Below are positions 43,527 through 60,746 of a stretch of 64,000 nucleotides of DNA, in pieces. A model generated the notes under the pieces. It searched no databases. It was not told where the DNA came from and worked only from the letters and a program-made list of their open reading frames with translations. The stretch's first letter is position 1; each line of letters begins with the position of its first letter. Source of the DNA: Oculatellaceae cyanobacterium bins.114. GTDB lineage: Bacteria; Cyanobacteriota; Cyanobacteriia; Elainellales; Elainellaceae. The DNA lies in NCBI GenBank assembly GCA_033764315.1, contig JANRJA010000077.1:91256-155255 (forward strand), in the 5' to 3' direction. A program made the position numbers and the translations under genes.

Positions 43527-44066
43527 GTGTCCCTGCATTTTTCTAAACTACCCTTTTCTAAACTACCTTTTTCTAAGCTAACGATAGTCTTAGCAGGACT
43601 GTTGCTGAATGGCTTGCTGCCGCTGTCAACCTTAGCCACTGAGGTTGGGTTTGAGCCAGCACCCGATAATGGTCGTCCTCATCGCACGACTGCTGGCGGG
43701 TCTCGTAATCCAGGGTATTGTCCTAATGATCAAACAGGCAGTCAACCGCTAGCCGCATTGCAATCCCCTGATCCAGCGGTCGATTCTGCGTTGGCGGTAC
43801 AAATTCAGGTGCCCAAAACCTCTGCTCGTGAAGCCGAATTTAGTCTCTTTGATGAATCAGGTAGAGGGGTGTATCAGACGTTATTAGCGTTAGGAGACGA
43901 ATCGGGTGTGATTCGGATTGACCTACCTGAAACGGCTTCCCAGCCGCAATCGAGTCGCCGTTATCGCTGGGTCTTTTCATTGATTTGCCAAGCAGACGAT
44001 CGCCTGCAAGACCGCTCTATTTCTGGATGGATTCAGCCTGGAGAGGCTTCTGCGCTGCAAAATTAA
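43527..44066 (+). CDS. DUF928-like protein
   Basis: Signal peptide, P.RTTAGGSR..C, AEFSL.DE, YRWVFSLIC and GWI; usual position in CHAT/CHASE2 clusters. Confidence 0.82.
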   Translation: MSLHFSKLPFSKLPFSKLTIVLAGLLLNGLLPLSTLATEVGFEPAPDNGRPHRTTAGGSRNPGYCPNDQTGSQPLAALQSPDPAVDSALAVQIQVPKTSAREAEFSLFDESGRGVYQTLLALGDESGVIRIDLPETASQPQSSRRYRWVFSLICQADDRLQDRSISGWIQPGEASALQN

Positions 44067-44356: not shown

Positions 44357-47065
44357 GTGTGGACCCAACGACTTAAACGGCTTGAGCAGTGGCGCAATAT
44401 TGGCATCACAGCAGTAGCCGTGTCTTGTTTGACGATTGGCTTACGACTGACGGGGGGGCTACAGATTTTAGAGTGGACCGTTCTAGATTGGTTTTTCCAG
44501 CATCGCGCCTTAGAAGAACCCGATTCTCGAATTGTTTTAGTCACCATCGAGGAAGCTGACATTACCCGATTGCAGCAGTGGCCTATCTCAGATGCGACCC
44601 TGGCAGAGGCTCTGCAGCGGATTAAACAACAACAGCCGAGGGTGATTGGTTTAGATCTCTACCGAGATCTTCCGGTTGAGCCGGGTCATGCTCAATTACT
44701 AGATGTTTTTCGATCGACCCCCAATCTGATTGGCATTGAAAAAGTGACCTCTGGGTCAGAAGGTGGGGCGATCGCTCCTCCTCCTGTTTTGTCAGAGCGA
44801 GGTCAGGTCAGTGCCAGTGATCTTGTGTTAGATGATGACGGCACACTGCGACGAGTCTTACTCTCTCTAGACAATGCAGACGGAGAAACTGTCTTAGGCT
44901 TGGCAAGCCGATTGGCATTAATTTACTTAAAGACTGAAGGCATTCAGTTAGAACCGATCAACCGAGATCGGGGGCACGTCCGCTTAGGCAAGGCCGAGTT
45001 TCTGCGGTTGCAAGCTAATGATGGAGGGTATGTCCGGGCTGATGTAGGGGGCTATCAAATTCTGTCGAATTTCCGTCATTTTAAACAAGAGTTTACTCAA
45101 GTTTCTTTATCAGAGCTGTTAGAGGGTCAGGTTCCTGCTGATTTAATGCGCGATCGCATTGTGTTGATTGGGACAACCGCCGCCAGTGTGAGCGATCGCC
45201 TGAATGCCCCCCGAATCGATAACACCGATAACCTGCCTGGTGTACCGGGGGTGATGATTCACGCTGACATCATCAGCCAATTGTTGAGTGCAGCGTTGGA
45301 AGGGCGTCCTGTCTTGAAAACCTGGTCAGAACCGGGAGAATGGGTCTGGATCGGGGTTTGGGCAGTGGTGGGATCATGGCTGGGATGGCGGCTCCAGTCT
45401 CCTTTACGCACGGGGATTGGAGCCTCGCTGCTGAGTGGTGGTTTGGGAGTCACAACCTACATTTTCTTTTTGCAAGGCTGGTGGGTGCCCCTGGTGCCAG
45501 GGGTGATTTCACTGCTAGGGTCAGCCGTAGTGAGCAAAAGTTATTTGCTCTGGAGCCACCTGTTGCAGTCAAAGCAGCAACTCGAAGAGTATGCCTCTAC
45601 GTTGGAACAAAGGGTGGATGAACGCACCCGTGAGCTAAACGAAAAAAATCGGCAACTTGAGCAAGCTAAAGAGGCGGCTGAAGCAGCCGCAAGGGCTAAA
45701 AGTCGTTTTTTGGCGACGATGAGCCACGAATTGCGAACCCCGCTCAACTCCATCATTGGTTTTTCTGAGTTGCTGCTGGAAGATATCTCGGTTGAAGCAC
45801 CAGAACATCGACAGGTCAACATCATCTACCAAAGCAGTTCCCACTTGTTGAATCTAATCAACGATGTGTTGACCATGTCAAAGATTGAATCTGGGCGCAC
45901 TAGCCTTAATTTAGATTGCTTTGACCTGCATGCGTGTGTTGATAATCTAATACAAATGTTTCGTCAGCAAACCGATTCTAAGCAGTTGCAACTACGGTGC
46001 GATCGCTCTGCCGATGTGCCCCAACTGGTGACAGCTGACGAAGGGAAACTGCGTCAAGTGTTGCTCAATTTATTGAGTAATGCGGTCAAATTTACCGAAC
46101 AGGGAGAGGTCATCCTGCGCGTCAAATTGCCCGATGAGACCGGAAAAGCCCTGGATGAGCCAAACCCTAGCACGGCACAGCCTCATGTCTTGCTGTTTGA
46201 AGTGGAAGATACCGGCTGTGGTGTGGCAGAAACAGAATTAGATAAATTGTTTCAGCCGTTTGAGCAAACTGAAGCAGGAAGGCGATCGCAGCAGGGCACT
46301 GGACTTGGACTGGCAATTAGCCGCGAGTTTATTCGCTTGATGGGCGGTGACATCTCAGTTCAGAGTCAGGTCAACGTTGGGACAACCTTTCGATTTTCGA
46401 TTCCAGTTCAGGTGGGCGACCTGTCTGAGCGTGAGGAAATCTTTCATCATCAAGTGCGGGTTGCCACCGAACAGCCCAAATATCGTATTTTGATCGCTGA
46501 AGATAACGTCGTCAATCGCACCCTGTTGATCTATATCCTGGCGTCTGCTGGGTTTCAAGTTCAGGTTGCAGAAAACGGGGAGGCTGCCATCCAACTGTGG
46601 AAGACCTGGCATCCTCATCTGATTTTTATGGACATGAATATGCCTGTGATGGATGGATATGAGGCAACTCGGCAGATCAGGGCAATCGAAACTTCAGATC
46701 TGAGTGCTCAATCTAACTCGGCTCAAGCGTCACAGCGACTGACGCCATCTGAGGAACCCTTAAGCCCATTGACGTTGACTGGTTATAACGGTCACAGCAA
46801 CTCAAGTGATGCTGCCCTCAGTCTTCCTAGTCTTTCTTCTCTACAAAATTCGACCTTGTCTGCAACCCACCCTCAGCACCCACGAACCGTTATTATTGCG
46901 TTGACAGCTCACATGTTTGAAGAAGAAAAACAAGCGGCGATCGCGGCAGGTTGTGATGATTTGTTGTCTAAGCCCTTTAAGAAAGAGTTGCTATATCAAA
47001 CTATTACCAAGTATCTGCAAGTTAACTATGTGGCGATCGACAAGAAAGTTGAATCGCCTTCTTAA
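44357..47065 (+). CDS. CHASE2 hybrid histidine kinase with receiver
   Basis: CHASE2 (PRVIGLDLYRD, DGTLRR, DRIVLIG, PGVMIHA), three TMs, MSHELRTP, HATPase, receiver FMDMNMP. Confidence 0.93.
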   Translation: MWTQRLKRLEQWRNIGITAVAVSCLTIGLRLTGGLQILEWTVLDWFFQHRALEEPDSRIVLVTIEEADITRLQQWPISDATLAEALQRIKQQQPRVIGLDLYRDLPVEPGHAQLLDVFRSTPNLIGIEKVTSGSEGGAIAPPPVLSERGQVSASDLVLDDDGTLRRVLLSLDNADGETVLGLASRLALIYLKTEGIQLEPINRDRGHVRLGKAEFLRLQANDGGYVRADVGGYQILSNFRHFKQEFTQVSLSELLEGQVPADLMRDRIVLIGTTAASVSDRLNAPRIDNTDNLPGVPGVMIHADIISQLLSAALEGRPVLKTWSEPGEWVWIGVWAVVGSWLGWRLQSPLRTGIGASLLSGGLGVTTYIFFLQGWWVPLVPGVISLLGSAVVSKSYLLWSHLLQSKQQLEEYASTLEQRVDERTRELNEKNRQLEQAKEAAEAAARAKSRFLATMSHELRTPLNSIIGFSELLLEDISVEAPEHRQVNIIYQSSSHLLNLINDVLTMSKIESGRTSLNLDCFDLHACVDNLIQMFRQQTDSKQLQLRCDRSADVPQLVTADEGKLRQVLLNLLSNAVKFTEQGEVILRVKLPDETGKALDEPNPSTAQPHVLLFEVEDTGCGVAETELDKLFQPFEQTEAGRRSQQGTGLGLAISREFIRLMGGDISVQSQVNVGTTFRFSIPVQVGDLSEREEIFHHQVRVATEQPKYRILIAEDNVVNRTLLIYILASAGFQVQVAENGEAAIQLWKTWHPHLIFMDMNMPVMDGYEATRQIRAIETSDLSAQSNSAQASQRLTPSEEPLSPLTLTGYNGHSNSSDAALSLPSLSSLQNSTLSATHPQHPRTVIIALTAHMFEEEKQAAIAAGCDDLLSKPFKKELLYQTITKYLQVNYVAIDKKVESPS

Positions 47066-47082
47066 ACTTCTTAAAAACAGCA

Positions 47083-47175
47083 TATAGCAGTCCTAAATCA
47101 TTTGTGAAATTAGGAGGTTGTGAGAGTCGCACCCCTCCGGGGTGCGACTCTCACAACCCATTTAGGATTGCTATA
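47083..47175 (+). mobile_element. 93-bp MITE with TA-ended TIRs and a long internal hairpin
   Basis: TATAGCAGTCCTAAAT...ATTTAGGATTGCTATA is 15/16 complementary. Internal hairpin GGTTGTGAGAGTCGCACCCC-TCC-GGGGTGCGACTCTCACAACC. Confidence 0.82.
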
Positions 47176-47201
47176 GGTTGAACCAATCGCAATTTTGGGG
47201 C

Positions 47202-49499
47202 TTATTGCCGAACCAAAGAGCGATCGCCCACACTGATGCGTACCAGTTGACGGGTGCGATCAAAGGTGACAGCCGTACTCAGTTTTTTAGATACCCCAGG
47301 AATAGTCACAACGCCTACTAGAGTTGAGTCAGATTGCCATTGTCCGGCATAACGAGCAAAGGCTAACCGAGGGAAAAAGGAACTACCAAACTGGTAAGCC
47401 ATACAACGCAACCCTGTTGTCACGGTGCTGATGGGTAGATAATCCCACCAGAGTCCAGCTTGATGCACCAACGGCAGTTTAGGCAGAGCAATCAAGAGCA
47501 TAGCCAGAGCCGGATCGTGGCCCTCTAACCGATGGCACATGAACCCATCTTGATCACGGCTATAGAACAGCTTGGCTGAACCAGAGTCAAAGTAAAAACT
47601 GCCATCGATCGCCATGCGATTGGTCAGGGTGAGAGTGGCGATCGCCCGTTCCTTTTGAACAACCCAAAAATGGAGTTGGGTGTCTAGTGGAAATGTGAGC
47701 GACTGAGCCAACGCTTGATCGGGTGCCATTGCTTCTAAAACGGTGTGTTCGGCAGGGCTAACTTCGGTGTGAAAGATGTCATCTACACGTAGATTGGCAA
47801 AGCTAAAGGGCACCGTAGCGGCTCCCACTTCGGGGGTAAGCTGTACCTGAATGTGAATGTGGGGTTGAGGCGAAAAGCCAGAGTTACCACAACGTCCAAT
47901 GAAGGCTCCTCGGTTAATGCGATCGCCCTGTTTGACGACAATACTGTTTTGGGCGAAGTGCGAAATTTCCACGTAAAAGCCGCGCTCGTCATACAGCACG
48001 ACGTGGTTGCCCCAGTTGTGATCTGCATCCACTGCGCCGATCGCACAGTCTGGTAAATCATTCACCACGCGCACCACCCAACCCCGAATGGGAGATAGGA
48101 CGGGTTTTTGAAACGCGTAATAGTCGGTTATCTGGGTTCCGGTGCCGCTATAGGCTTTTCCTTGCTCATCTTGAATGACAAAGTCGTAGGCATATCGCCA
48201 CAATCCTTGATGTGTCCAGACCCCATTACACCCCTGCCAGACTGACCAGCGTCCTGCAAAGGGGAGCGCGATCGCCCTGCCACTGCCCTGATAGCGTTGT
48301 CGAGCCGTCAGCTCAACATCCAGCGTTTTTTCGGGCGATGTTTGGGGAATGCGAACTAGCGAGCGGTTGCCTGCGATCGTCAGCAAATACAACAGCAGCA
48401 TAGTCACCAGATTATAAGGGAGGGCATGGACGGGCAAACCCACCGCCGCCCAAAAGACTCCAATGGCTTCACTCAAGAGAGCCACTAACGTAGTGGCGAT
48501 CGCAGCTAGCAGATAACTACGAGGCGAGGGAAGAAGATAAAATCCACCGATTGCTAACGCTACCAGGATGAAATTTAACGCGGCTGGGTCGTAGTAAACA
48601 TAGTCAAAGGTTCCGGTGAGAACACCTCGCAGAACAGTGCCCAGGACATAACTGGCGATCGCCAACAAAAACTGGATACGCGAATTGAGGAACAGCAGCA
48701 ACGCCACCACCATACCAACCCAAACATTTGGCAAAAAAAAGATCAGCCCCAACGCACGCAGAAACCCTTCTAGGGGCAGCGGTAGACCAATCGTATAAGC
48801 ATGGGCCGGAAGAATGGCGTGGTCTAACCCAGCATAGTGAAACGCGGCTAGATGCACCACCCAACTGACTAGAATGAATGGCAAACTGAGGACGGGCAAC
48901 CACAAAAAAGTTTTAAGAATATGAGCCAGTGTCCAGGTCAGCAGAAATGCCAGCACCCCTGCCGTTGCTGCCAGAAATAGAGCTGGAACACTGAGTTGAA
49001 ACAGGTAGCCCACACCCAGACCCGCTAATAACGGGTTAAACAGCAGCGGGGGACGATTGGCGATGCCCAGTTCTAACGAATTGCAATCTTTTGGCTCAAG
49101 TTGCACTAATCGAGAAAACACCACAGCCGTTAACACAGCCGTCAGTCCTAGAATCAACACTGGAGGTTGCAACAGCATCGCTGCCAGTAAGAATGCCCCT
49201 GTGCTCACCCCTCTTAGAAACAAGATCTCAGCGGTTGCCGCACAAATAGCTCGAAATAAGCGAAAGGGAGTTTGTGCTTTAAACCGGCTCCAGAGTTGGG
49301 TAGCTGAATGGGTTGGGGTTGCCACCTTTAAATACCGCCAGCGTGGGGGGGAGTGATGCAAGTCCAACATGGGTTGTGTAGGGAGTAAGGAATGGGGAGA
49401 AGGGAATCGCTTTGTGTCCAGGAAGACTGGAAATACCATTTTGGAAGCTCCGCCTCTGTGCGTCGCGGAAGACCGAGCTTCCAGGGTCTGAGTTAGCAA
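47202..49499 (-). CDS. Urea-transporter-like membrane domain fused to an M23-family peptidase domain
   Basis: About 10 TMs with UT-like motifs (AEILF, FNPLLAG, LPVLSLPF, LPVHALPY), then THQG...YDF, PVLSPIRG.VV, WGNHVV, ISHF and GNSGFSPQPHIH (HxH). Start uncertain. Confidence 0.8.
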   Translation of the reverse strand: MLTQTLEARSSATHRGGASKMVFPVFLDTKRFPSPHSLLPTQPMLDLHHSPPRWRYLKVATPTHSATQLWSRFKAQTPFRLFRAICAATAEILFLRGVSTGAFLLAAMLLQPPVLILGLTAVLTAVVFSRLVQLEPKDCNSLELGIANRPPLLFNPLLAGLGVGYLFQLSVPALFLAATAGVLAFLLTWTLAHILKTFLWLPVLSLPFILVSWVVHLAAFHYAGLDHAILPAHAYTIGLPLPLEGFLRALGLIFFLPNVWVGMVVALLLFLNSRIQFLLAIASYVLGTVLRGVLTGTFDYVYYDPAALNFILVALAIGGFYLLPSPRSYLLAAIATTLVALLSEAIGVFWAAVGLPVHALPYNLVTMLLLYLLTIAGNRSLVRIPQTSPEKTLDVELTARQRYQGSGRAIALPFAGRWSVWQGCNGVWTHQGLWRYAYDFVIQDEQGKAYSGTGTQITDYYAFQKPVLSPIRGWVVRVVNDLPDCAIGAVDADHNWGNHVVLYDERGFYVEISHFAQNSIVVKQGDRINRGAFIGRCGNSGFSPQPHIHIQVQLTPEVGAATVPFSFANLRVDDIFHTEVSPAEHTVLEAMAPDQALAQSLTFPLDTQLHFWVVQKERAIATLTLTNRMAIDGSFYFDSGSAKLFYSRDQDGFMCHRLEGHDPALAMLLIALPKLPLVHQAGLWWDYLPISTVTTGLRCMAYQFGSSFFPRLAFARYAGQWQSDSTLVGVVTIPGVSKKLSTAVTFDRTRQLVRISVGDRSLVRQ

Positions 49500-50866
49500 C
49501 CAGCAACCAGCGAGTTAGTCCGGCTTGCTAACGCCGCAGGCAGGTGTTCCCGTCGTTCTAAATCGGTGATATCTTCCGCTGCACGAATTAGCTCTACCTC
49601 GCCGTTTTCCATCACCATGACGACATTGGGACGATATTCAATGAACTGCATCCACTGGGTGTTGTTGTATGCGCCCACGGTGGAAACTACTAAGCGATCG
49701 CCTCGTGCCAATGGGGGCAATGAGATCTGCTCATCGATCACATCAATGTTCATACAGAGAGGCCCATATAACACCGACGGTTCCGCCGTACCAGAGATGG
49801 GTTGTGCCAGTGACACATCAAAGCGATACCAAAAACTGGTGAACAGCAAGTTGACGCCAGCATCCATCACGTAGGCGCGAGTGCCATTGGGCAAGCGTTT
49901 GGTGCCGCATACACTCGTAATGAGTGATCCGGCTTCGTCGATCATGGCGCGACCAGATTCCACAATGAGTTTGGGTGTGTGTCCTGGCTTGAGAGATTTC
50001 CACATCGCATCACAAATCGCATCGGCATATTCATCAATTGTGGGCAGTGTCACCTCAGCCGCGTGATAGGCTCCCTTGAGCCGACTGCGAGAGGGCAAAC
50101 CACCCCCAATGTCGATGTAATCCATGCGCCACCCGTATTGGGTTTCAATGTCATAGCCAAATTGCACCATTTTTTCGACCTGCTGAGCATAAGCTTCAGG
50201 ATCAAGAATGTAAGTGCCGATGTGGCTGTGCAAGCCATTCACGCGTAATTTTCCACCACGAGCCATGCGCCGAATCGCCTCCATCGCTTGCCCTGATTCC
50301 AAATTGAAGCCAAAGCGTGACCAGCAGGGCTGAATGCCTGCATCCAGGTTCAAGCGAATGCCTACCGAAATGACCCGATCAAGACGAGTGGCGATCGCCT
50401 CCAGATCTTCAATTTCATCCAGGTGATCGACGTTGATCGTGACACCATCGCGCACAGCCGCTTCTAACATCTCAAACGGTTTATGGGGACCATTGAGAAT
50501 AATTTGATTGCCCGGAATATGCAGTGCCTTCGCCTTGTCATACTCCATTTTAGAAACGAGTTCTGCCATTGCCCCTTCTTGATGGAACACAGCACAAATC
50601 GCTTTGAGATAATTAGTTTTGTAAGACCACCCAAACGTGACATCAGGATAACGAGTTGCAAAGGCGTTACGAATGGTGCGAAATTGACGTCGAATGCTGC
50701 GTTCAGAATAGACAAACAACGGTGAACCATACTGCTCTACTAAGTCATCCACAGACACCCCAGCGATCGCCCGTTTGACTCGGTTTTGGGGGGGTGTGGC
50801 TCCCGCAAACTTGTTCATCAATCCACTGCGTAACGGCTGAATCACAGGCTTTTCGTAGGTTTGCAT
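49493..50866 (-). CDS. PLP-dependent fold-type III (group IV, LysA/BtrK-like) decarboxylase
   Basis: YGSPLFVY, WSYKTN (PLP Lys), GLHSHIGT, IDIGGG, ESGR, GPLCMNID and GAY. Confidence 0.88.
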   Translation of the reverse strand: MQTYEKPVIQPLRSGLMNKFAGATPPQNRVKRAIAGVSVDDLVEQYGSPLFVYSERSIRRQFRTIRNAFATRYPDVTFGWSYKTNYLKAICAVFHQEGAMAELVSKMEYDKAKALHIPGNQIILNGPHKPFEMLEAAVRDGVTINVDHLDEIEDLEAIATRLDRVISVGIRLNLDAGIQPCWSRFGFNLESGQAMEAIRRMARGGKLRVNGLHSHIGTYILDPEAYAQQVEKMVQFGYDIETQYGWRMDYIDIGGGLPSRSRLKGAYHAAEVTLPTIDEYADAICDAMWKSLKPGHTPKLIVESGRAMIDEAGSLITSVCGTKRLPNGTRAYVMDAGVNLLFTSFWYRFDVSLAQPISGTAEPSVLYGPLCMNIDVIDEQISLPPLARGDRLVVSTVGAYNNTQWMQFIEYRPNVVMVMENGEVELIRAAEDITDLERREHLPAALASRTNSLVAGC

Positions 50867-51906
50867 TAACGTTCTCCTTGGGTCACGAGGGTTTGTAGTG
50901 GAGTTGCGTCTGTCACCAATTCGTAGGTGTAGCGCATAAAAAGTTTGCCTGCGGCGTAGTCAGGCAAAGGGAACATCGGTAAGCCAAAGGCAGCTTGGAC
51001 TAAACGAGTGGGCAGATTAATGCCAACTCCGGTAGCGAAGTAAGTCCAGGCAGGAAATCGGGGGTTAATTTCAATCAGATAAATCGTGCCATCACGGTCG
51101 GCAATGCATTCCAGTTCAAAGGGACCCTTCCAGTGGGTTTGTTGCAAAAAGGCTTGGGCAGCACTGATTAAACCAGGATGGTGAATCGTCAAGCCACTCC
51201 AGATTTTGCCCAATTCGGTGACACCCATTTTCTTGATGGCGACCAATCCGAGGTGTCCCCCGGTACCGTCACCAACACCAACCAGGTTTAATTCAATACC
51301 GCTAACAATCTGCTGCACTAGAATTGGGAATCCTGCTTCTGTGGCTAGTTGGTGAAACCGCGATCGCGCTTCTTCCTGGCTAAATACCCGATATGCCTTG
51401 TAGTAAGCTCCTTTGATCATGAGTGGAAAGCCCAATTCTGCGGTCGCTTGCTGTAGTTCCTGGAGGGATGTGACACTCACTGTTTCTGGAGTTTTGAGTC
51501 CAAATTGGGGGGCTAGTTCTGCCAACTTGGCTTTGTTTCGCAGGGCAAACTGGGCTTTGGTAGGCAGATACGTGCGAATGCCGATCGCCTCTAACTCTGG
51601 AGCGCAGCGGATATACAGCGGTAGCTCTAAATCAAAATTGGGAATCACACAATCTAAGCCAAACTGCTGTTGAATCTGCTGTAACCGCTCTAGTAAGATA
51701 TCCGGCTCTGCGGATGGATAGGGCATGATATAGCGGCGATCGAACAACCAATCCATATATAGTCCTGGTTCCAGGGCATCATATGCCAGTCCGATGAGCT
51801 GAGTAGATAGGTGATCCGATTCTCGTAAACTGCGAGCAACCCCTGTACCAGGACCCGGATTATCCACTGAGTTAATGCCTGTAATGGCGATCGCAAGGTG
51901 ATCCAT
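50866..51906 (-). CDS. ATP-grasp carboxylate-amine ligase
   Basis: NKAKL, GFPLMIKG, QQIVSGIE, KGPFELE and YLIEINPRF; TAATG overlap with the decarboxylase start. Confidence 0.88.
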   Translation of the reverse strand: MDHLAIAITGINSVDNPGPGTGVARSLRESDHLSTQLIGLAYDALEPGLYMDWLFDRRYIMPYPSAEPDILLERLQQIQQQFGLDCVIPNFDLELPLYIRCAPELEAIGIRTYLPTKAQFALRNKAKLAELAPQFGLKTPETVSVTSLQELQQATAELGFPLMIKGAYYKAYRVFSQEEARSRFHQLATEAGFPILVQQIVSGIELNLVGVGDGTGGHLGLVAIKKMGVTELGKIWSGLTIHHPGLISAAQAFLQQTHWKGPFELECIADRDGTIYLIEINPRFPAWTYFATGVGINLPTRLVQAAFGLPMFPLPDYAAGKLFMRYTYELVTDATPLQTLVTQGER

Positions 51907-52029
51907 GACTCTTTATTTACTGGTTATTTAAAGTAGTGGGAAAAAACAAGACGATGACACGATCAGAGAATGGCGGGAGAACAAGAGTACGAACACAAGA
52001 GCACGAACACTCAGCCTGCCCTCACCCGC

Positions 52030-52269
52030 TCACCCTTTTAAGCCCAACGTGCGAAGGATTTGAAAAAAGTCTGAGACATCTCGCTCTACCAGACTTTGAG
52101 CCACACCAAACTCATTGGCGATCGCTTGAATAATGTGATCTGGCGTTTCACCAGAACGGAGGCGGCTTAAAATCGACCGAGCACAGCGATTGAGAGTATA
52201 GCTTTCACCCGTAGTGACATCAAAGGCAAATCCATCGTTGCTAATCGTGAGTGATGACAATTGAGACAT
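52030..52269 (-). CDS. Stand-alone PqqD-family (RiPP recognition element) protein
   Basis: 79 aa with the three-strand/three-helix pattern: GFAFDVTTGESYTLN...ILSRL...IANEFGV...VERDVSDFFQIL..LGL. Confidence 0.85.
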   Translation of the reverse strand: MSQLSSLTISNDGFAFDVTTGESYTLNRCARSILSRLRSGETPDHIIQAIANEFGVAQSLVERDVSDFFQILRTLGLKG

Positions 52270-52284
52270 AAGTTTCTGTGCCGT

Positions 52285-52341
52285 AGATTGTAGTTGGGTA
52301 AGAGATTGTAATTGGGCAAGAGATTGTAGTTGGGTAAGAGA
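52285..52341. repeat. 18-bp tandem repeat x3 in the pqqD leader
   Basis: AGATTGTAGTTGGGTAAG / AGATTGTAATTGGGCAAG / AGATTGTAGTTGGGTAAG. Confidence 0.85.
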
Positions 52342-52507
52342 GGTCAGAACGATAGGGAACGAGATGATGTGATGACGTAGATTACTGTTTCATCTCTTAC
52401 TCTTGAATCCTTTATCGTTTATCCTTTAGCCCTTTTCCTTTTTGTCTCTGGCCCTTCTCCATAACTCGATTAAGCAGGTCAAAAATGACAGCTTCTCTAA
52501 CGCTTAG

Positions 52508-52523
52508 ATTACAAATCTGTAAT
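52508..52523. promoter_or_regulatory. Palindromic operator ATTACA-N4-TGTAAT upstream of the pqqD operon
   Basis: ATTACAaatcTGTAAT; recurs at 53154-53169 and partially at 53058-53073. Confidence 0.65.
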
Positions 52524-52559
52524 GATGAGAAGTGTTGTTTTTACAGAATTCGGGGAACT

Positions 52560-53030
52560 TTAGGGACGTCCACGCCATTCTTGAATCACCTGCACCAGTT
52601 GGTCGGAGGTGAGCACCTGCCGCTCGGCTAACAGAGCTTCAAAGTGGTTTTCATCCAACTGTTGCCGTAATTGCTGTACCTGCTGATGTTGTTCCCGTAA
52701 AGCTTCAATTGAGGTATCGCTATTTTGCAACAGCGATCGCAGTTGTTCTTCCGCTGCTACCAATTGTTGATGTAATGCGTCACCTGACTGGCGGGCTTGC
52801 TCATGAATTGTCTGGAGTTGCGATCGCTGTTCACTACTCAGATCGAGATTTCTAGCCCACGGAGGCGCAGGACTATTGCTCAGGGCAGTGTTTCCATCTG
52901 ATGGAGATGAAGCTTGTGCCAGGAGGATGGTCGTTTTAGCAAGCGTGGGAGATTGAGCCGAGGCAATTGTGCTGCCTACCTGAATTAGCACTAGAACGGT
53001 GGGCAATAGCCATACATATCGAACTTTCAT
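52560..53030 (-). CDS. Spy/CpxP-like periplasmic helical protein
   Basis: Signal peptide from MKVRYVWLL with GGAGG RBS; LDLSSEQRSQL and VLTSDQ (LTxxQ) motifs. Confidence 0.8.
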   Translation of the reverse strand: MKVRYVWLLPTVLVLIQVGSTIASAQSPTLAKTTILLAQASSPSDGNTALSNSPAPPWARNLDLSSEQRSQLQTIHEQARQSGDALHQQLVAAEEQLRSLLQNSDTSIEALREQHQQVQQLRQQLDENHFEALLAERQVLTSDQLVQVIQEWRGRP

Positions 53031-53153
53031 AAGGGCCTCCTGTATGGGGTCAGTAAAATTACAAATCTGACAGATCGGATGGTTGTGGCGATCGCTCAAT
53101 GCAGCCACATCCTCATTAACCAACGCAAATATGACTGTTCAAGTCACTCCTCG

Positions 53154-53169
53154 ATTACAGTTTTGTAAT
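53154..53169. promoter_or_regulatory. Palindromic operator ATTACA-N4-TGTAAT between the Spy-like gene and the response regulator
   Basis: ATTACAgtttTGTAAT, 52 nt upstream of the regulator ATG. Confidence 0.65.
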
Positions 53170-53221
53170 TGGAACCTACCAATAACGGACATAGAATAGA
53201 TAAGAGATTCACCCTTTTTCT

Positions 53222-53905
53222 ATGCACGTTCTCTACGTTGAAGATGAAGCAAAAATTGCTGACTTTGTCCAGGCCGGATTAAAGGAGCAAGGCTTTTTAG
53301 TGGATTATTGCGACAACGGTAACGATGGTTATTTGCGGGCAATGGACCATGAATACGACGTGATCGTGTTGGATATTATGGTGCCGGGAAAAGATGGATT
53401 GGCAATTCTCAAAGGGTTGCGGCGAGCCGGTCGCAATACTCCAGTAGTGCTGTTGACCGCCCGAAACGAACTAGACGATCGCCTGGAAGGGTTGAACCTG
53501 GGAGCAGATGACTATATCGCCAAGCCGTTTTTTGTGGAAGAACTGGTTGCTCGGATTCACGCAGTCGTACGACGGGTATCTGGCGATCGCCAAAATCTGC
53601 TCAGTGTTGGCTCCATTAAACTCGATCGGATTACACGAGAAGTCACTTGCAATCAACAGTCGGTCGAATTGACTACCCGTGAGTTTAATTTGTTGGAATA
53701 CTTGATGCGATCGCCCGGTCGTGTCTTTACCCGTACCCAAATTCTAGAGCACGTTTGGGGCTATGACTTTAACCCCAGCACCAACCTGGTAGATGTCTGC
53801 ATTCAGCGGTTACGAAAAAAGATTGAACCCTTGGGAGGAGCAGGCTACGTCGATAGTGTGCGAGGGGTGGGCTATTGTTTTCGCAAACCTGATATCGACT
53901 CGTGA
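53222..53905 (+). CDS. OmpR-family response regulator (CusR/CzcR-like)
   Basis: VEDE, VLDIMVP, GADDYIAKPF, LTTREFNLL, WGYDF..TNLVDV and VRGVGY. Confidence 0.93.
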   Translation: MHVLYVEDEAKIADFVQAGLKEQGFLVDYCDNGNDGYLRAMDHEYDVIVLDIMVPGKDGLAILKGLRRAGRNTPVVLLTARNELDDRLEGLNLGADDYIAKPFFVEELVARIHAVVRRVSGDRQNLLSVGSIKLDRITREVTCNQQSVELTTREFNLLEYLMRSPGRVFTRTQILEHVWGYDFNPSTNLVDVCIQRLRKKIEPLGGAGYVDSVRGVGYCFRKPDIDS

Positions 53906-55524
53906 AACGTCTTTCCTTTCGATTCCGCATTGCTCTTTTATCTGCTCTGTTAGCAGGTGGAACGTTAGTTAGTTTTGGCACGGTGTCGTGGTGGCTGATT
54001 TATCAGACCAAAATGAATCGCATTGACGATGGCATTCAAAATGAGTTAATGCGCGAATCTGATCGCCCCCGACCAGAGAACCACTGGAAAACCTACACTG
54101 ATTCACTCTGGAGGATTTTTAGTACTAAGACTCCAAACGATGTAGCCTTGCTGGTACAAACCGCTGCTGGGGAGATCACTTATCAATCTCCCACTTGGAC
54201 GGCAGAGTTAACTGGCATCGCGGCTGTTTCAAATCGCTTGCCTGCACCCCCCCAGATCACACCTCAGATAGCACCCCAAAACTCATCACAAACGGTGCCG
54301 TTGCCCCCGTCACAGCCATCTACATCATTTCCTCCACCTCCGTTTCCACCTCCGGGTCAAGGCCCCCCACCTGGGCAAGGAGCACCCCCAATGGGCGCAT
54401 CCACCGATCCATTTGGACAACCCCCGATACCACCTCCAACTGAAGCTCCGGGTGTCTTTCGTCTACCGGGTCAGTTATCTAAACTTGTGACCTACTCCAC
54501 TCCTGCTGGCTCTTGGCGGGTGGGTGCTGTGACGGCTTCAGATATTCACATTGCGATCGCGATTAATTTACGCACCCTCGAAGCCGAGATGGATGTCATT
54601 CGCAATGCCTATCTGGTTAGTATTTCTTTGCTACTGGTGTTGGTTGCGATTGGTGCCTGGTGGCTCTCTGGCAGTGCGTTACAACCGATTCGAGATATCA
54701 CTGATACGTTGCGTCGGGTCACGGCTAAAGGGTTAGATCAACGCGTTCCTGTTAGCGGCAGCGATCGCGAATTTGTGGAACTGTTGCAAGTTTTTAATCA
54801 AATGATGGAACGCCTGGATCGGAGCTTTACTCAAGCATCTCGTTTTAGTGCTGATGCGGCACATGAACTCAAAACACCTTTGTCAATTTTGCAAGGGGAA
54901 TTGGAACGAACCCTGCAAGCCGCGGAACCCGGTTCTTTATTACAGCAACGTTTGAGCAGTTTGTTGGATGAGGTGCGGCGGTTAGGGGCGATCGTTCGTA
55001 AACTGCTGTTGCTCTCGTTAGCCGATGCTGGACAGATGCGTCTTTACACCACTGAAGTCAATTTATCAGATGTGTTAGTGGATCTGATGGGCGACATTGA
55101 GATGTTAGCCCCTGAACTGACAGTGCAGATGCAGATTGCACCTGACTTAATCGTTCATGCTGATCAAGCACTCTTGATCCAGGTGTTGCAGAACCTGATT
55201 AGCAATGCCATTAAGTATAATCTGCCAAGCGGCTGGGTGCGGATCGAGGCAGGACAACGTAACCAGGCTGTTTTTGTCAGAGTAAGTAACAGTTCTAGAG
55301 ATATTCCAGTGAGTGAGCGATCGCAAGTTTTCGATCGCTTTCATCGGGGTGATCCGGCTCGCACTCGTCATGTGGAGGGGTTGGGGTTAGGGCTGAGCCT
55401 GTCCCGCGAAATTGCCTATGCACATCAAGGCAATTTGACCCTAGACCCTACGTTGGCTGGGCAAACGGCGTTTACCCTGACTCTCCCAGGTTCGGTTTAT
55501 CTAAGCAATTTGGCGGCTGATTAA
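53902..55524 (+). CDS. HAMP sensor histidine kinase (CusS/CzcS-like) with a Pro-rich periplasmic region
   Basis: Two TMs, HAMP, ADAAHELKTP and GLGLGLS; GTGA overlap with the regulator. Confidence 0.92.
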   Translation: MKRLSFRFRIALLSALLAGGTLVSFGTVSWWLIYQTKMNRIDDGIQNELMRESDRPRPENHWKTYTDSLWRIFSTKTPNDVALLVQTAAGEITYQSPTWTAELTGIAAVSNRLPAPPQITPQIAPQNSSQTVPLPPSQPSTSFPPPPFPPPGQGPPPGQGAPPMGASTDPFGQPPIPPPTEAPGVFRLPGQLSKLVTYSTPAGSWRVGAVTASDIHIAIAINLRTLEAEMDVIRNAYLVSISLLLVLVAIGAWWLSGSALQPIRDITDTLRRVTAKGLDQRVPVSGSDREFVELLQVFNQMMERLDRSFTQASRFSADAAHELKTPLSILQGELERTLQAAEPGSLLQQRLSSLLDEVRRLGAIVRKLLLLSLADAGQMRLYTTEVNLSDVLVDLMGDIEMLAPELTVQMQIAPDLIVHADQALLIQVLQNLISNAIKYNLPSGWVRIEAGQRNQAVFVRVSNSSRDIPVSERSQVFDRFHRGDPARTRHVEGLGLGLSLSREIAYAHQGNLTLDPTLAGQTAFTLTLPGSVYLSNLAAD

Positions 55525-58514: not shown

Positions 58515-60746
58515 TTAACTGAGTTCTCCGTCACTGCGAATCAGTTGGGCATAATAGCCAGACTGTTGCCACAGATCCTCATGAGTTCCTCGCTGCACCA
58601 CTTTGCCGCGTTCTAGCACGATAATTTCATCACAGTCTCGAATGGTGCTGAGACGGTGTGCCACGATGATGCAGGTGCACCCCCGTTGGCGCAAGCGCAA
58701 GTCAATTTCTCGTTCTGCCTCAGAATCTAATGCGCTCGTGGCTTCGTCCATCAGCACAATCGAGGGATTGTTGACTAATGCTCTGGCAATCTCAAGGCGT
58801 TGTCGTTGTCCTCCACTTAAATTAGTGGCACCTTCAAGCAGCGGAGCATCATATCCCCCTGTTGTCGCCAAAATGACATTCGCGATCGCCGCGTCCTGAC
58901 ACGCTTTTTCGAGGGCACTATTCGGAACAGTCGTATCCCACAACGTCAAGTTTTCTCGAACACTCCCCGCAAATAGCAAGATATCTTGCTCAATCATGGC
59001 GATTGAATTGGTGAGGATCGAGCGTGGAATTTGGGTTCTAGGAATGCCATCAAAATAAATTTCGCCTGACCAGGGATTAAATAATCCTGCAATCACCTTT
59101 GCCAGAGTTGATTTACCAGAACCGCTGCCACCCACAAAAGCAACTCGCTGACCGGGCTTAATTGAGAGATTAAAGTTTTCAATTAAGGGGGCTTCTAAGG
59201 AATTGTAGCCATAGGTAATGTCTTTTAATTCAATGTAACCCTGGAGCCGATGAGTGGGTTGTGAGGCATATTGAGGCTGAGATTCAGATTGTTTAGAGGC
59301 ATAATGCTCCATTTCAGTGAGTTGAGGGTCTACTTCATTGCCCAAAACATCATCCAGCCGTTGTAAATTTCCCTGTAAGTCTTGAATCGTGCTGCCAAAG
59401 CGAACCAACCGATTGACGGGCAGCAAAAAGCTCTGCGTCAACATCTGAAAGGCGACCAACATGCCAATGCTGAGGGTGCCGTTAATCACGCGCCAACCCC
59501 CGATCGCCAACAACGACAACGCTGTTAAAGCTGATAAAAGTGCAGGTAACACACCCAGTGTTTTGCTGACAACGCCTAACTCTTGCTGAGCATTAATGGC
59601 TTTGGTGTAATACCCTGCCCATCGGGCAAAAAAATCAGACTCTAACCCAGAGGCTTTTAGAGTCTCCATGCTTTGCAGCCCAGCGATCGCCACCCCAGAG
59701 ACTTTGCCATATTCTTGAGCGAGTCTCAAGTTAGCATCAACCCGTCGCCGCGACACCCACTGTAGGGTCAAGACATTGACCGCTGCAAAGAAGACCACAA
59801 TGAGAGTGAGCACAGTGTCATATTGAAACATGGCGATCGCATAGAAGATCACCAACACCACACTAATCACCGTCGTCGTTAAGCGACCCGACAACACATC
59901 CGCTACATCATCGTTTAAGCGAACGCGACTACTAATTTCTCCGGCATAGCGTTGCGCATAAAAGTTAATCGGTAAGCGCAACACATGCCAGAGAAATCGA
60001 CTCGACATACTCACAGCGAGCTTAATTTTGAGGCTTCGCAGATACCGCAGTTGCAACAGGGTTAACAGTCCTTGTAAGGCGATCGCCAGCAACACCCCCA
60101 ACAAAATATAAGGGAGCCAACTAAACCTGGCATTCACCAAAACCTGATCAATAAAGACCTGGGTAAAAACAGGCAAGGCAAGATTAGGAACAACCAGCAA
60201 AAATCCGGCAAGAATACAATAGAGTAACGCCCCTGTTGAACCCTGAAGACGACGGCCTAAAGCGGAGACAACGTTAGGTTTATGACCCCCCGGTTTGAAG
60301 TCTGCACCCGGTTCCATGACTAACACAACCCCGGTATAGCCCTCATCAAAATCTTGATAAGACACGGTCATAGGCCCAGCCGCAGGGTTATTGAGATAGA
60401 CGCGATCGCGCCCAAATCCATCCACCACCAGAAAATGATTAAAGTGCCAAAAGATAATGAAAGGAGTCCGTAACTGTTTTAGGCTCTCCAGGTTTTTCTT
60501 AAACCCTTTGGCGACCAGTCCATATTTTCTTGCTGCCTTGAGAATGTTGGCAGCCGTCACGCCATCACGCGAAACCCCACAGGCTTGCCGCAACTCTGCC
60601 AGAGGCACATAATTGCCGTAATACCCCAACATCATGCCTAAAGCCGCCGCTCCACACTCTACGGCTTCCATTTGCAAAATCGTGGGGGTTTTAACGCGAT
60701 TTTGACGCTTTAGTACTTGTTGTAAGGGCTGATTGATCCACATCAT
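58515..60746 (-). CDS. NHLP-type C39 peptidase/ABC transporter
   Basis: TPTILQMEAVECGAAAL (catalytic Cys), FNHFLV (His), GGSGSGKST and LSGGQRQR. Confidence 0.92.
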   Translation of the reverse strand: MMWINQPLQQVLKRQNRVKTPTILQMEAVECGAAALGMMLGYYGNYVPLAELRQACGVSRDGVTAANILKAARKYGLVAKGFKKNLESLKQLRTPFIIFWHFNHFLVVDGFGRDRVYLNNPAAGPMTVSYQDFDEGYTGVVLVMEPGADFKPGGHKPNVVSALGRRLQGSTGALLYCILAGFLLVVPNLALPVFTQVFIDQVLVNARFSWLPYILLGVLLAIALQGLLTLLQLRYLRSLKIKLAVSMSSRFLWHVLRLPINFYAQRYAGEISSRVRLNDDVADVLSGRLTTTVISVVLVIFYAIAMFQYDTVLTLIVVFFAAVNVLTLQWVSRRRVDANLRLAQEYGKVSGVAIAGLQSMETLKASGLESDFFARWAGYYTKAINAQQELGVVSKTLGVLPALLSALTALSLLAIGGWRVINGTLSIGMLVAFQMLTQSFLLPVNRLVRFGSTIQDLQGNLQRLDDVLGNEVDPQLTEMEHYASKQSESQPQYASQPTHRLQGYIELKDITYGYNSLEAPLIENFNLSIKPGQRVAFVGGSGSGKSTLAKVIAGLFNPWSGEIYFDGIPRTQIPRSILTNSIAMIEQDILLFAGSVRENLTLWDTTVPNSALEKACQDAAIANVILATTGGYDAPLLEGATNLSGGQRQRLEIARALVNNPSIVLMDEATSALDSEAEREIDLRLRQRGCTCIIVAHRLSTIRDCDEIIVLERGKVVQRGTHEDLWQQSGYYAQLIRSDGELS

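Follow-up and report, generated by a model that had tools for sequence, protein, structure and literature searches.

ATP-dependent ligases are paired with alanine-racemase-fold PLP decarboxylases in BtrJ/BtrK (butirosin side chain), FigA/FigC and SbnE/SbnH. Lasso-peptide operons encode the small, stand-alone B1 protein (RRE) alongside a peptidase and an enzyme that forms amides at the expense of ATP. In the peptidase-containing ABC exporters (PCATs) a membrane transport protein carries a fused cytoplasmic peptidase, and the E. coli CusRS/HprRS systems (targets cusCFBA and hiuH-msrPQ) consist of an OmpR-family regulator and a kinase encoded divergently from the target. We analyzed a locus with likenesses to all of these in a 64,000-nt stretch of DNA (the window) of Oculatellaceae cyanobacterium bins.114 (GCA_033764315.1, contig JANRJA010000077.1, positions 91,256 to 155,255, forward strand).

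The cassette occupies 47202-52269 of the window on the minus strand and encodes a PqqD-family protein, an ATP-grasp ligase, a PLP decarboxylase and a membrane protein joining a urea-transporter-like (UT) domain, an M23 peptidase and a beta domain. The four co-oriented ORFs recorded in the preliminary description were all present, and the TAATG stop/start overlap at 50866, with AAGGAG just ahead, was found at the ligase/decarboxylase junction. The other overlap, placed at 49493-49499, did not hold up: it needs a TTG start, and a gap of about 122 nt between the decarboxylase and membrane protein genes is more likely from the sequence, conservation in the membrane protein family beginning near residue 85 and an Atlas record starting at Met44, the ATG at 49370. 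The PqqD and ligase genes are separated by 123 nt, so some of the junctions are not tight.

A neighborhood survey, recommended earlier as a check of four-gene conservation, was carried out on genome contigs and gave 287 relatives, among them 63 loci with enough flank. The script found all four genes in order in 59 of these 63, and inspection by eye recovered PqqD in two of the four misses, bringing the count to 61/63 with L012 and L026 as the exceptions. The arrangement is far beyond chance. It spans more than 10 phyla, was seen in diderm phyla only and is rare: of 401 sampled cyanobacterial genomes, 4 have it. Literature searches directed at these four genes found no description of the cassette, in line with the earlier remark that no characterized pathway with this set was known. 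Envelope genes (TPR, outer-membrane proteins, OprB) lie nearby. An NHLP-type peptide export ABC transporter is encoded 3 kb away in the window and is not a conserved neighbor.

The alanine-racemase-fold decarboxylase (49493..50866, minus strand, 457 aa; Orn_Arg_deC_N 116.6 bits, Orn_DAP_Arg_deC 49.7 bits) belongs to the FigC/SbnH/AcsE/BtrK/MccE/DAPDC clade. The NCBIfam models FslC (223 bits, cut-off 500) and LysA (221 bits) both matched below their cut-offs, and the closest of the solved chains was FigC 7kh2 (189 bits), followed by LysA (136) and BtrK (83). A true LysA is encoded elsewhere in the genome (498 bits, over the cut-off), which rules out this enzyme as the genome's LysA, let alone its only one. 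The WSYKTN, ESGR and GPLCMNID signatures, which had suggested a different substrate, are all present, and that suggestion is in line with the pocket, in which T343, W346, Y347, M372, I374 and Q404 are invariant. T343, Y347 and M372 are the equivalents of the enlarged-pocket residues T327, Y331 and M355 of FigC, whereas the citrate-binding H357 and R387 of FigC are replaced by I374 and Q404; an equivalent of DAPDC R343 and the acidic residue beside the catalytic Cys are missing. K83, H215, G254-256, R306 and C371 are also invariant and match the roles listed for FigC residues in the available part of PMC7857480. The same part describes the FigC/SbnH/BtrK/MccE type as acting on amino acids tethered via the side chain, with BtrK and MccE using protein- or peptide-tethered ones. 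Since the decarboxylase groups with these enzymes, the ATP-grasp-then-decarboxylase order borrowed from BtrJ/BtrK is reasonable. Unlike BtrJ/BtrK, FigA/FigC and SbnE/SbnH, the cassette has neither an acyl carrier protein (BtrI) nor an NIS synthetase and adds the PqqD protein, a leader-like tail and the channel-peptidase fusion.

The partner enzyme (50866..51906, minus strand, 346 aa) is an ATP-grasp carboxylate-amine ligase resembling PRK12767-type and CPS-like enzymes. Its Pfam matches fell under their cut-offs, the best NCBIfam match was a PRK12767-type model (72 bits), and the closest solved chain, 2pn1 (63 bits), is itself an uncharacterized protein. A PDB profile search did not place it near LysX/RimK or graspetide ligases, and D-Ala-D-Ala ligase models matched only marginally (18 bits). 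It is 50-89% identical across phyla, with K165, E279, N281 and R283 among the invariant residues. Judged by their invariant catalytic residues, the ligase, decarboxylase and M23 enzymes look active.

The PqqD-family (RRE-type) protein (52030..52269, minus strand, 79 aa; PF05402 45 bits, E 1.4e-11, cut-off 23.4), which in related loci, too, has an orthologue encoded ahead of the ligase, is small and stand-alone like lasso B1. Among NCBIfam models it matched the lasso-type PqqD model NF033530 best, with 42 bits, short of the cut-off of 70. In contrast to lasso clusters, the cassette has no B2 transglutaminase-like protease, Asn-synthetase-like cyclase or precursor gene. As noticed before, no plausible precursor ORF was present in the spacers of the window, and no short ORF was conserved across phyla in 80 loci. 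No fusion of PqqD to any partner enzyme was found either, which is weak evidence.

The only candidate ligand was the N-terminal tail of the decarboxylase itself (codons 1-40, 50747..50866, minus strand; YEKPVIQPLRSGLMNKFAG). The tail motif YEKPxIxxLxxGxMNKFG was found in 64/66 aligned family decarboxylases, Y4, P7, G15, N18 and K19 being invariant. Neither the LysA model nor the solved chains have anything corresponding to the tail, their alignments beginning at residue 31-33. When 1.84 billion representatives were searched with a profile of the tail, 73 of the 88 matches went on into decarboxylase sequence, and free-standing peptides with the motif did not emerge as a family; it was found on decarboxylases only. 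We take Y4-x-x-P7-x-I9 to match the lasso leader motif YxxPxL that is recognized by B1, carried here by a 457-aa enzyme. Co-folding of tail and PqqD scored 0.42 (best control 0.02), which the tool rates as weak support; of 157 solved complexes 116 reached its mark, as did 2 of 215 mismatches, but only 18 of the 157 did so with a score of 0.60 or lower, along with both passing mismatches. At least 94% of contacts were the same between runs, partner pLDDT was 72 or higher, and the solved RRE-leader complexes could yield such a result from the predictor's memory. Of the earlier idea that the RRE presents a peptide, the separate peptide dropped out, and the tail is left as a weakly supported ligand.

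The membrane protein (47202..49370, minus strand) is 722 aa long if translated from the ATG at 49370 and 765 aa if the TTG at 49499 is the start. Its AF2 model (pLDDT 87.7, pTM 0.80) matched urea transporters in Foldseek at E about 1e-14, and also M23 peptidases. The UT domain (residues 83-373 in the 765-aa numbering, 48381..49253; PF03253 148.7 bits; family profile versus dvUT 3k3f 130 bits) keeps the two pore motifs LPVLSLPF and LPVHALPY, a signature that suggests a narrow pore. The M23 domain (about residues 418-553, 47841..48248; PF01551 39.8 bits at residues 464-553) has H430, D439, H514, H547 and H549 invariant in 30/30 sequences, the numbering in that alignment being shifted by 43, and its first motif has the non-canonical spacing H-x8-D. 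The C-terminal beta-rich domain (47205..47693, AF2 pLDDT 91) has no Pfam family and gave no Foldseek match at E <= 1e-3 (best LolA, 3e-3); the best VIA-align matches, vitellogenin (Z 9.1), lipoprotein (8.5), ApoB (8.5) and LolA (6.6), are close to the tool's stated background level.

Both termini of the UT fold lie on one side, K/R-rich stretches stand ahead of helix 1 and behind helix 10, and the central loop is K/R-free, so the M23 domain, and with it the beta domain, which follow the tenth helix, are predicted to be cytoplasmic. Because of this placement and the kept pore signature, the role of product exporter proposed in the preliminary description is doubtful, and a urea-sized pore fits export of a larger amide poorly. 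PCATs offer an analogy in that the cassette, too, would combine a cytoplasmic peptidase-conduit fusion with a leader-binding element in one cluster, but the conduit is a UT-fold channel instead of an ABC pump and the peptidase is M23, not C39. Peptide passage through the channel would be an extension of that analogy.

The regulatory context had been missed in the earlier account of the locus. Upstream of the cassette, on the same strand, lies a gene for an LTXXQ/Metal_resist (CpxP/Spy/ZraP-like) periplasmic protein (52560..53030; PF13801 40.4 bits, PF07813 27.6 bits), which is kept upstream of PqqD in 14 related loci besides the window. Divergent from it, at 53222..55524 on the plus strand, are an OmpR-family response regulator (53222-53905) and a sensor kinase (53902-55524) of the heavy-metal (CusRS/CopRS/HprRS) type (TIGR01387 and TIGR01386, 238 bits each, short of the curated cut-offs for heavy-metal systems). 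The periplasmic part of the kinase includes a proline-rich segment unlike what is known of CusS. That cyanobacterial copies of the cassette adjoin a CusRS/HprRS-like system and an LTXXQ protein is a new observation: the regulator next to the cassette has 80-96% identity in 15 cyanobacterial-type loci and 62-69% in three non-cyanobacterial ones, and outside the cyanobacterial-type clade the cassette lacks the link to a two-component system.

Two palindromes accompany these genes, TTACAAATCTGTAA at 52509..52522, 253 nt upstream of the PqqD start, and TTACAGTTTTGTAA at 53155..53168, in the spacer that separates the divergent response regulator and LTXXQ genes. Their core, TTACA-N4-TGTAA, is identical to that of the E. 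coli CusR/HprR box CATTACAAAATTGTAATG (PMC9302797, part available). It occurs twice in the window versus 0.05 expected, whereas genome-wide it is no commoner than the reversed control (5 versus 4 sites), so the argument rests on position and not on count. Among 24 cyanobacterial-type loci, a box was present in 19 and missing in five; the proximal one precedes PqqD in 11, in nine of these at -91 to -132. The box of the second palindrome also stands beside the regulator gene in genomes devoid of the cassette. A regulator and target that are adjacent and appear to travel together resemble the E. coli CusRS/HprRS type, as far as the available part of PMC8249747 describes it, but the targets here are the LTXXQ protein and the cassette, not an efflux pump or MsrPQ as in those single-target regulons. 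In this cyanobacterium a stress sensor of the copper/oxidant type appears to turn the cassette on.

Our tentative preference, held at somewhat less than even chances, is a ligation-decarboxylation pathway induced by stress and located on the cytoplasmic side of the inner membrane, encoded by a horizontally spread, strongly conserved accessory cassette and most likely yielding a small amine-type product. The ligase would couple a carboxylate to an amine, giving an alpha-amino acid tethered through its side chain, and the FigC/BtrK-clade decarboxylase, with a pocket enlarged like that of FigC and uncharged, would strip the alpha-carboxyl. PqqD would serve no separate precursor and may dock on the YEKPxI...G..NKF tail, holding or positioning the decarboxylase in a complex at a trimeric UT-like channel, the M23 and lipid-binder-like beta domains of which could process or pass on substrate or product. 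In this cyanobacterium the cassette and the LTXXQ protein would be the local output of the CusRS/HprRS-type system, and induction by envelope copper or oxidant stress would follow. The reading put forward in the preliminary description is partly supported.

The tail might instead be both a docking tag and the putative carrier, PqqD binding YEKPxI and presenting N18-K19-F20 to the ATP-grasp enzyme, which would add an amino acid by an isopeptide bond, on the pattern of LysW/LysX, BtrI/BtrJ or the pearlins. The tethered amino acid would be converted by the decarboxylase, and M23 would free the product or clip the tail. The invariant N18 and K19, 8-12 residues past the leader-like motif, favor such self-scaffolded synthesis, as do the fused cytoplasmic peptidase with its complete catalytic set, the failure of the searches above to find a separate carrier or precursor gene and the tethered substrates of BtrK and MccE (PMC7857480, part available). 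We consider it rather unlikely: no enzyme of this fold is known to bear its own stoichiometric carrier, the PDB profile search did not bring the ligase near LysX/RimK or graspetide ligases, and the co-fold is silent on the ligase. A conventional RiPP pathway, with a precursor missed or encoded elsewhere, PqqD presenting it to the ATP-grasp enzyme and M23 as leader peptidase, would account for the lasso-type PqqD matches, the peptidase, the ATP-dependent ligase and the NHLP-type transporter. It is even harder to credit, as that transporter is not conserved nearby, no short ORF is conserved, the ligase is remote from graspetide ligases, the motif was found on decarboxylases only and all four proteins are very highly conserved across phyla, unlike what is typical of RiPP clusters.

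M23 enzymes cleave peptidoglycan peptides, and the cassette could edit or recycle such peptides in response to envelope stress, with the Ddl-like ATP-grasp and DAPDC-like decarboxylase acting on meso-DAP stem peptides or precursors, for example at the free D-centre of peptide-bound DAP. Precisely those pocket residues to which the distal free carboxylate and amine of DAP bind are gone, and the restriction to diderms, the envelope genes and the adjoining envelope-stress-type regulator agree with this; the FigC score well above LysA, the marginal D-Ala-D-Ala ligase match, the lack of a Mur-ligase or amidase partner and a rarity that speaks against a general wall function, together with PqqD and the channel left without a role, make it improbable, though less so than the RiPP pathway. 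Least probable of all is a part in urea or nitrogen metabolism, in which UT would be a true urea channel, the enzymes would make or use a urea-related or polyamine metabolite, and PqqD and M23 would be regulatory. The strong UT match with its kept pore motifs and the fold shared with polyamine-pathway enzymes point that way, but the available part of PMC7857480, which notes that fold, describes the clade as unrelated to polyamines. No urease, agmatinase or arginase gene was found as a conserved neighbor in the related loci, and the regulator is of the metal/oxidant type, not the nitrogen type.

The cassette is a run of four minus-strand genes (47202-52269) encoding a PqqD-family protein of 79 aa (52030-52269; PF05402, 45 bits against a cut-off of 23.4), an ATP-grasp ligase of 346 aa (50866-51906), an alanine-racemase-fold PLP decarboxylase of 457 aa (49493-50866) and a membrane protein, an ORF of 765 aa in its longer form, that combines a urea-transporter (UT) and an M23 peptidase domain. 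The preliminary description had called the junctions tight, which stood for the ligase and decarboxylase genes, whose stop and start share TAATG preceded by AAGGAG, but did not hold elsewhere. The PqqD-ligase spacer measures 123 nt here and 10-20 nt in most related loci, and the supposed overlap at TTG 49499 gave way to ATG 49370 as the most likely start of the membrane gene (47202-49370), judging from family conservation, which begins at about residue 85, and from an Atlas record that begins at Met44. Inside the 123-nt spacer a 14-bp unit is repeated in 2.1 copies (51981-52010). The base composition of the window was not out of the ordinary, and the promoter and terminator scan gave a signal no higher than shuffles. 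Rfam searches for riboswitches and RNA leaders returned nothing relevant in 46500-55600 (E <= 1) and tRNAs only in eight related loci, and the PADLOC defence-system models matched none of the five proteins compared with them. On the 3' side of the cassette, a DUF928 gene (43527-44066, +) is followed by a gene for a CHASE2 hybrid histidine kinase (44357-47065, +) converging on the cassette end; this gene pairing appears unrelated to it.

Of 7645 candidates scored, 3028 proved related to the ligase at E <= 0.001, the 120 matches listed being 54-100% identical to it, and a scan with one genome per species gave 287 ligase-encoding stretches, the best 80 of which were compared. The taxa given in their titles are cyanobacteria, Verrucomicrobia, Gemmatimonadota, Planctomycetota, Aquificales with Persephonella, Thermodesulfobacterium, Kapaibacteria, Leptospirales, Lentisphaerae, Armatimonadota and Burkholderiales, some of the MAG labels being plainly mis-binned. 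A script counted the four genes in the same order in 67 of the 80 loci. Among the 63 whose flanks were long enough it counted 59, and inspection of the four misses revealed the PqqD ORF in two (L041 and L047), which brought the count to 61 of 63. The neighbourhood survey bore out conservation of the four genes, the exceptions being L012, with the ligase alone of the cassette, and L026, without the membrane gene. That the four genes form a real and coherent cassette is nearly certain. Between the cyanobacteria and the Aquificales-type and Verrucomicrobia genomes, identity reached 50-89% for the ligase and 55-89% for the decarboxylase, and the cassette is rare within its phylum (4 of 401 cyanobacterial genomes sampled, that of the window counted). 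Such high identity across phyla, together with patchy occurrence, points to an accessory unit probably spread by transfer.

Flank clustering showed that the cyanobacterial-type cassettes are preceded by a divergent response regulator and sensor kinase (53222-53905, + and 53902-55524, + in the window) and a same-strand LTXXQ/Metal_resist gene (52560-53030, -); an OprB porin gene lies downstream in six cyanobacterial-type loci. The best models of the regulator and kinase are of the heavy-metal CusR/CopR/HprR type, both with scores below the cut-offs (TIGR01387, 238.1 versus 279.2; TIGR01386, 238.3 versus 292.55). In 15 loci a response regulator 80-96% identical stands beside the cassette; locus L015 keeps a remnant, and 62-69% identical regulators occur in three non-cyanobacterial loci whose cassettes are the closest to the cyanobacterial type. 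The regulator orthologue is commoner (31/401 genomes) than the cassette, and in cassette-free genomes its partner is an LTXXQ-like gene in divergent orientation. Adjacent to the sensor kinase gene are a gene for an NHLP-type bacteriocin export ABC transporter subunit (55501-58500, -; TIGR03797, 981 bits, above the cut-off) and a second ABC gene (about 58515-60428, -); neither gene regularly accompanies the cassette in the other loci.

The palindrome TTACA-N4-TGTAA occurs exactly twice in the 64-kb window (0.05 expected; none of 100 shuffles reached two), at 53155-53168 between the regulator and LTXXQ genes and at 52509-52522, 253 nt ahead of the start of PqqD. The two copies flank the LTXXQ gene. 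The E. coli CusR/HprR box, CATTACAAAATTGTAATG in the legend to Fig. 1 of PMC9302797, has the same core. When the window and 23 cyanobacterial-type loci with PqqD were surveyed (n = 24), a box with at most one mismatch was found within 400 nt upstream of PqqD in 11, nine of them at -91 to -132, and in the regulator/LTXXQ spacer in 14. At least one box was present in 19 of the 24 loci, and the remaining five had no intact two-component system; about 400 kb of surveyed loci held only 8 further matches. Genome-wide, the box is as rare as its reversed control (5 versus 4), so the argument rests on the position of the sites and not on their number. A third box with an A/T spacer, in the petC-petA promoter region, is probably due to chance. 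An 18-bp unit, AGATTGTAGTTGGGTAAG (plus strand), is repeated in 3.2 copies at 52285-52341, in the stretch that separates the PqqD start codon from the proximal box, and this repeat may explain why the box lies at -253 here and at about -96 in related loci. From these sequence features the LTXXQ gene and the cassette would form a local regulon of a copper/oxidant-type sensor, and we consider control of the cassette by the two-component system rather probable.

The decarboxylase had been set apart from LysA by its signatures, a view that gained ground here: it scored 221.5 bits with the LysA model TIGR01048, below the equivalog cut-off of 297.9, and the true LysA of the genome, which scores 497.8 bits and exceeds that cut-off, is encoded by the C14 gene on another contig. 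Identity with LysA was therefore rejected. The DAP-binding residues are also replaced. In the available text of PMC7857480, the distal carboxylate and amine of the substrate are bound in MjDAPDC by R343, on the specificity helix, and by an acidic residue that follows the catalytic Cys; here T343 and M372 occupy these positions, and both are invariant in the family. The placement of the enzyme, made from model and PDB-chain scores, lies nearest to the N-citrylornithine decarboxylases FslC/FigC (NF041039, 223.1 bits, below the cut-off of 500; chain 7kh2, 189 bits, as compared with 136 for LysA and 83 for BtrK). The FigC specificity residues listed in that part of PMC7857480 (T327, T330, Y331, M355, H357 and R387) correspond, in ungapped stretches of the phmmer alignment, to T343, W346, Y347, M372, I374 and Q404, all invariant among 21 family members. 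Hence the enlarged FigC-like pocket is kept, and the distal-carboxylate Arg of DAPDC and the acidic residue beside the catalytic Cys lost. FslC/FigC identity itself was not borne out, the citrate-contacting H357 and R387 of that description being replaced by the uncharged I374 and Q404; no IucA/IucC-type Pfam match, as expected of an NIS synthetase partner (FslA/FigA), was obtained for any cassette or flank protein scanned. The same text groups FigC with SbnH, AcsE, MccE, BtrK and DAPDC, several of which have as substrates amino acids whose side chain is attached to a small molecule, peptide or carrier protein. Taken with the pocket residues, this makes an alpha-amino acid whose side chain is long, uncharged and amide-linked the probable substrate.

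For the ligase, the Pfam ATP-grasp matches remained below the cut-off, the best NCBIfam match was of the PRK12767 'carbamoyl phosphate synthase-like' type (72 bits), and the top PDB matches were 2pn1 and carbamoyl-phosphate synthetase.

The decarboxylase carries an N-terminal tail (residues 1-40), the first 30 residues of which match nothing in the LysA model or the solved chains. Of 66 family members aligned, 64 have the motif Y-E-K-P-x-I-x-x-L-x-x-G-x-M-N-K-F-G, an ORF-start call and a garbled frame accounting for the other two, and Y4, P7, G15, N18 and K19 are invariant. Its Y-x-x-P-x-[IL] part is similar to the leader motif that B1 RREs recognise in lasso peptides. The motif also occurs, with another continuation (YERPxIxKLNTGLMNKFGTRTEY...), in a more distant, second subfamily of decarboxylases (P0153, P0157, P0161 to P0210 in the profile search), and by this sequence comparison the tail predates the cassette clade studied here. 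Co-folding of tail residues 1-40 with PqqD gave 0.42 in three runs, a value that the tool grades as weak support, since most passes up to 0.60 are false unless there was good prior reason to expect the pairing; the best control gave 0.02. The runs shared 94% or more of their contacts, with a partner pLDDT of 72 or higher; the tool also cautions that memorised solved look-alikes may yield a pass. Binding of the tail by PqqD is plausible, if just short of an even prospect.

The AF2 model of the membrane protein (30-sequence alignment) reached a pLDDT of 87.7 and a pTM of 0.80. The UT domain (PF03253, 148.7 bits, above the gathering score) matched the urea transporters 3k3g and 8xdf in Foldseek (E about 1e-14; TM to target 0.73-0.83), i.e., the ten-helix UT fold. 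Members of the urea-transporter family have N-in/C-in topology; Arg/Lys-rich segments stand before helix 1 and after helix 10, and the central loop has none, so the M23 and C-terminal domains should be cytoplasmic. The last 170 residues form a beta-rich half-barrel with helices (AF2 pLDDT 91). For this domain Foldseek gave nothing at E <= 1e-3 and the ESM Atlas no usable match; VIA-align placed lipid-binding barrels on top (vitellogenin, Z 9.1, rmsd 3.4 over 135 residues; ApoB, Z 8.5; LolA, Z 6.6), with Z values barely exceeding the stated background level of the tool.

Altogether, the reading that we put forward, tentatively and as a possibility that stops short of being probable, is a stress-induced pathway at the inner face of the membrane in which ligation would be followed by decarboxylation. 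PqqD would dock on the decarboxylase tail, and the channel-peptidase protein would serve as a platform and as a processing or hand-over module. An alternative is that the tail itself acts as the carrier. The BtrJ/BtrK/BtrI system has a dedicated acyl carrier protein, whereas domain scans found no carrier-protein domain in the cassette or its conserved neighbours, and the likeness of the decarboxylase to BtrK is limited to 83 bits. Such a self-carrier mechanism is unlikely. In its full form, PqqD would grip the YEKPxI tail, the ATP-grasp enzyme would load an amino acid onto the region of the invariant Lys19, and the cargo would be decarboxylated on the enzyme's own tail and released at the membrane by the channel-fused cytoplasmic M23 domain; that this yields a copper- or oxidant-protective small amine under the CusR/HprR-type sensor is distinctly doubtful.

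A conventional RiPP pathway with a hidden precursor draws on the presence of a PqqD/RRE domain protein, as in RRE-dependent RiPP clusters, whose best NCBIfam match is of the lasso type. Neither the B2 protease nor the Asn-synthetase-like cyclase C of the lasso pathway was found in the cassette with Pfam and NCBIfam; no graspetide macrocyclase of the MdnB/MdnC or PsnB type was among the 43 PDB matches of the ligase (E <= 0.01, sequence profile comparison). The impression that no precursor gene accompanies the cassette was reinforced, as no convincing ORF of at least 20 aa was found in the window spacers and clustering of 1320 short ORFs around 80 loci left only out-of-frame shadows and clade-local repeats, none kept across phyla. 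Word-based search found no short protein with the tail motif. The tail profile gave 88 hits among 1.84 billion representatives, 73 of which continue into decarboxylase sequence; of the other 15, 8 end too early to tell, 5 diverge past the motif and 2 are unrelated, 13 thus being ambiguous as fragments. With 73 hits being decarboxylase fragments, no free-standing tail-peptide family emerged. A conventional RiPP pathway of this kind is highly improbable. Editing of peptidoglycan peptides, which we regard as quite unlikely, would agree with the M23 domain (PF01551, 39.8 bits against 28.7), matched in Foldseek to Csd1/Csd2, LytM, ShyA and lysostaphin (E 2e-5 to 2e-4). M23 zinc and catalytic motifs are HxxxD, H and HxH; all 30 sequences aligned have H430, D439, H514, H547 and H549, and H514 and H547-x-H549 fall on catalytic positions of solved enzymes. 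The first pair is spaced H430-x8-D439, not HxxxD, the Pfam match begins downstream of it, and the predicted location is cytoplasmic. Urea or polyamine metabolism is scarcely credible. The family profile scored 130 bits against dvUT, and the pore motifs LPVLSLPF and LPVHALPY, aligned to PALTAPF and PALTWPF of dvUT, are kept in both halves (LPVFTLPF being the family consensus of the second); the bacterial Yut equivalog model TIGR03441 gave 79 bits, below its cut-off of 274.6, and urea would be a putative cargo of the UT domain.

The cassette as a whole corresponds to no described system and is by kind a ligase-decarboxylase one. A search of the literature on the gene set found no description, in line with the preliminary description, which knew of no characterised pathway; the available portions of PMC12710340 and PMC8939145 do not mention it, and a 2026 paper (PMC12998343) notes, in the part available, bacterial UT-M23 fusions as an architecture only. 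The cassette is nearly unchanged across distant phyla, yet this literature assigned it no function, and its combination of parts is otherwise unseen: a peptide-recognition protein comes without a peptide gene, a leader-like tail is built into an enzyme, and a wall-type peptidase, predicted to be cytoplasmic, is fused to a urea-channel fold. The putative copper/oxidant induction through a defined box would make the product experimentally reachable. Should the product prove to be an amine that binds metal or scavenges oxidants, it would be relevant to the way in which some cyanobacteria withstand copper stress. If PqqD does bind the tail, RRE domains double as protein-protein adaptors; were the tail the scaffold, a RiPP recognition element would be used anew outside RiPPs, along with a new kind of enzyme-borne carrier.

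The loci also differ in detail. At 7962-9041 of L012, from an Oscillatoriales genome, the ligase is 77% identical and is kept together with the two-component system and the LTXXQ gene; the missing PqqD, decarboxylase and membrane genes suggest a decayed copy. Cluster look-up of three ligase orthologues gave generic names only, and the search for PqqD fusion proteins a single 148-aa match. Tandem double PqqD-like proteins of 138-142 aa are encoded in three loci (L040, 7574-7990; L043, 6165-6581; L045, 7564-7992). According to flank clustering, an unknown protein of ~290 aa and a TPR protein are encoded downstream outside cyanobacteria, with an additional Peptidase_S74-bearing protein in Verrucomicrobia. 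In the verrucomicrobial loci L033-L038, L070, L075 and L082, an element that is NVQRST-rich in translation, probably a clade-specific intergenic repeat, lies between the decarboxylase and membrane genes.
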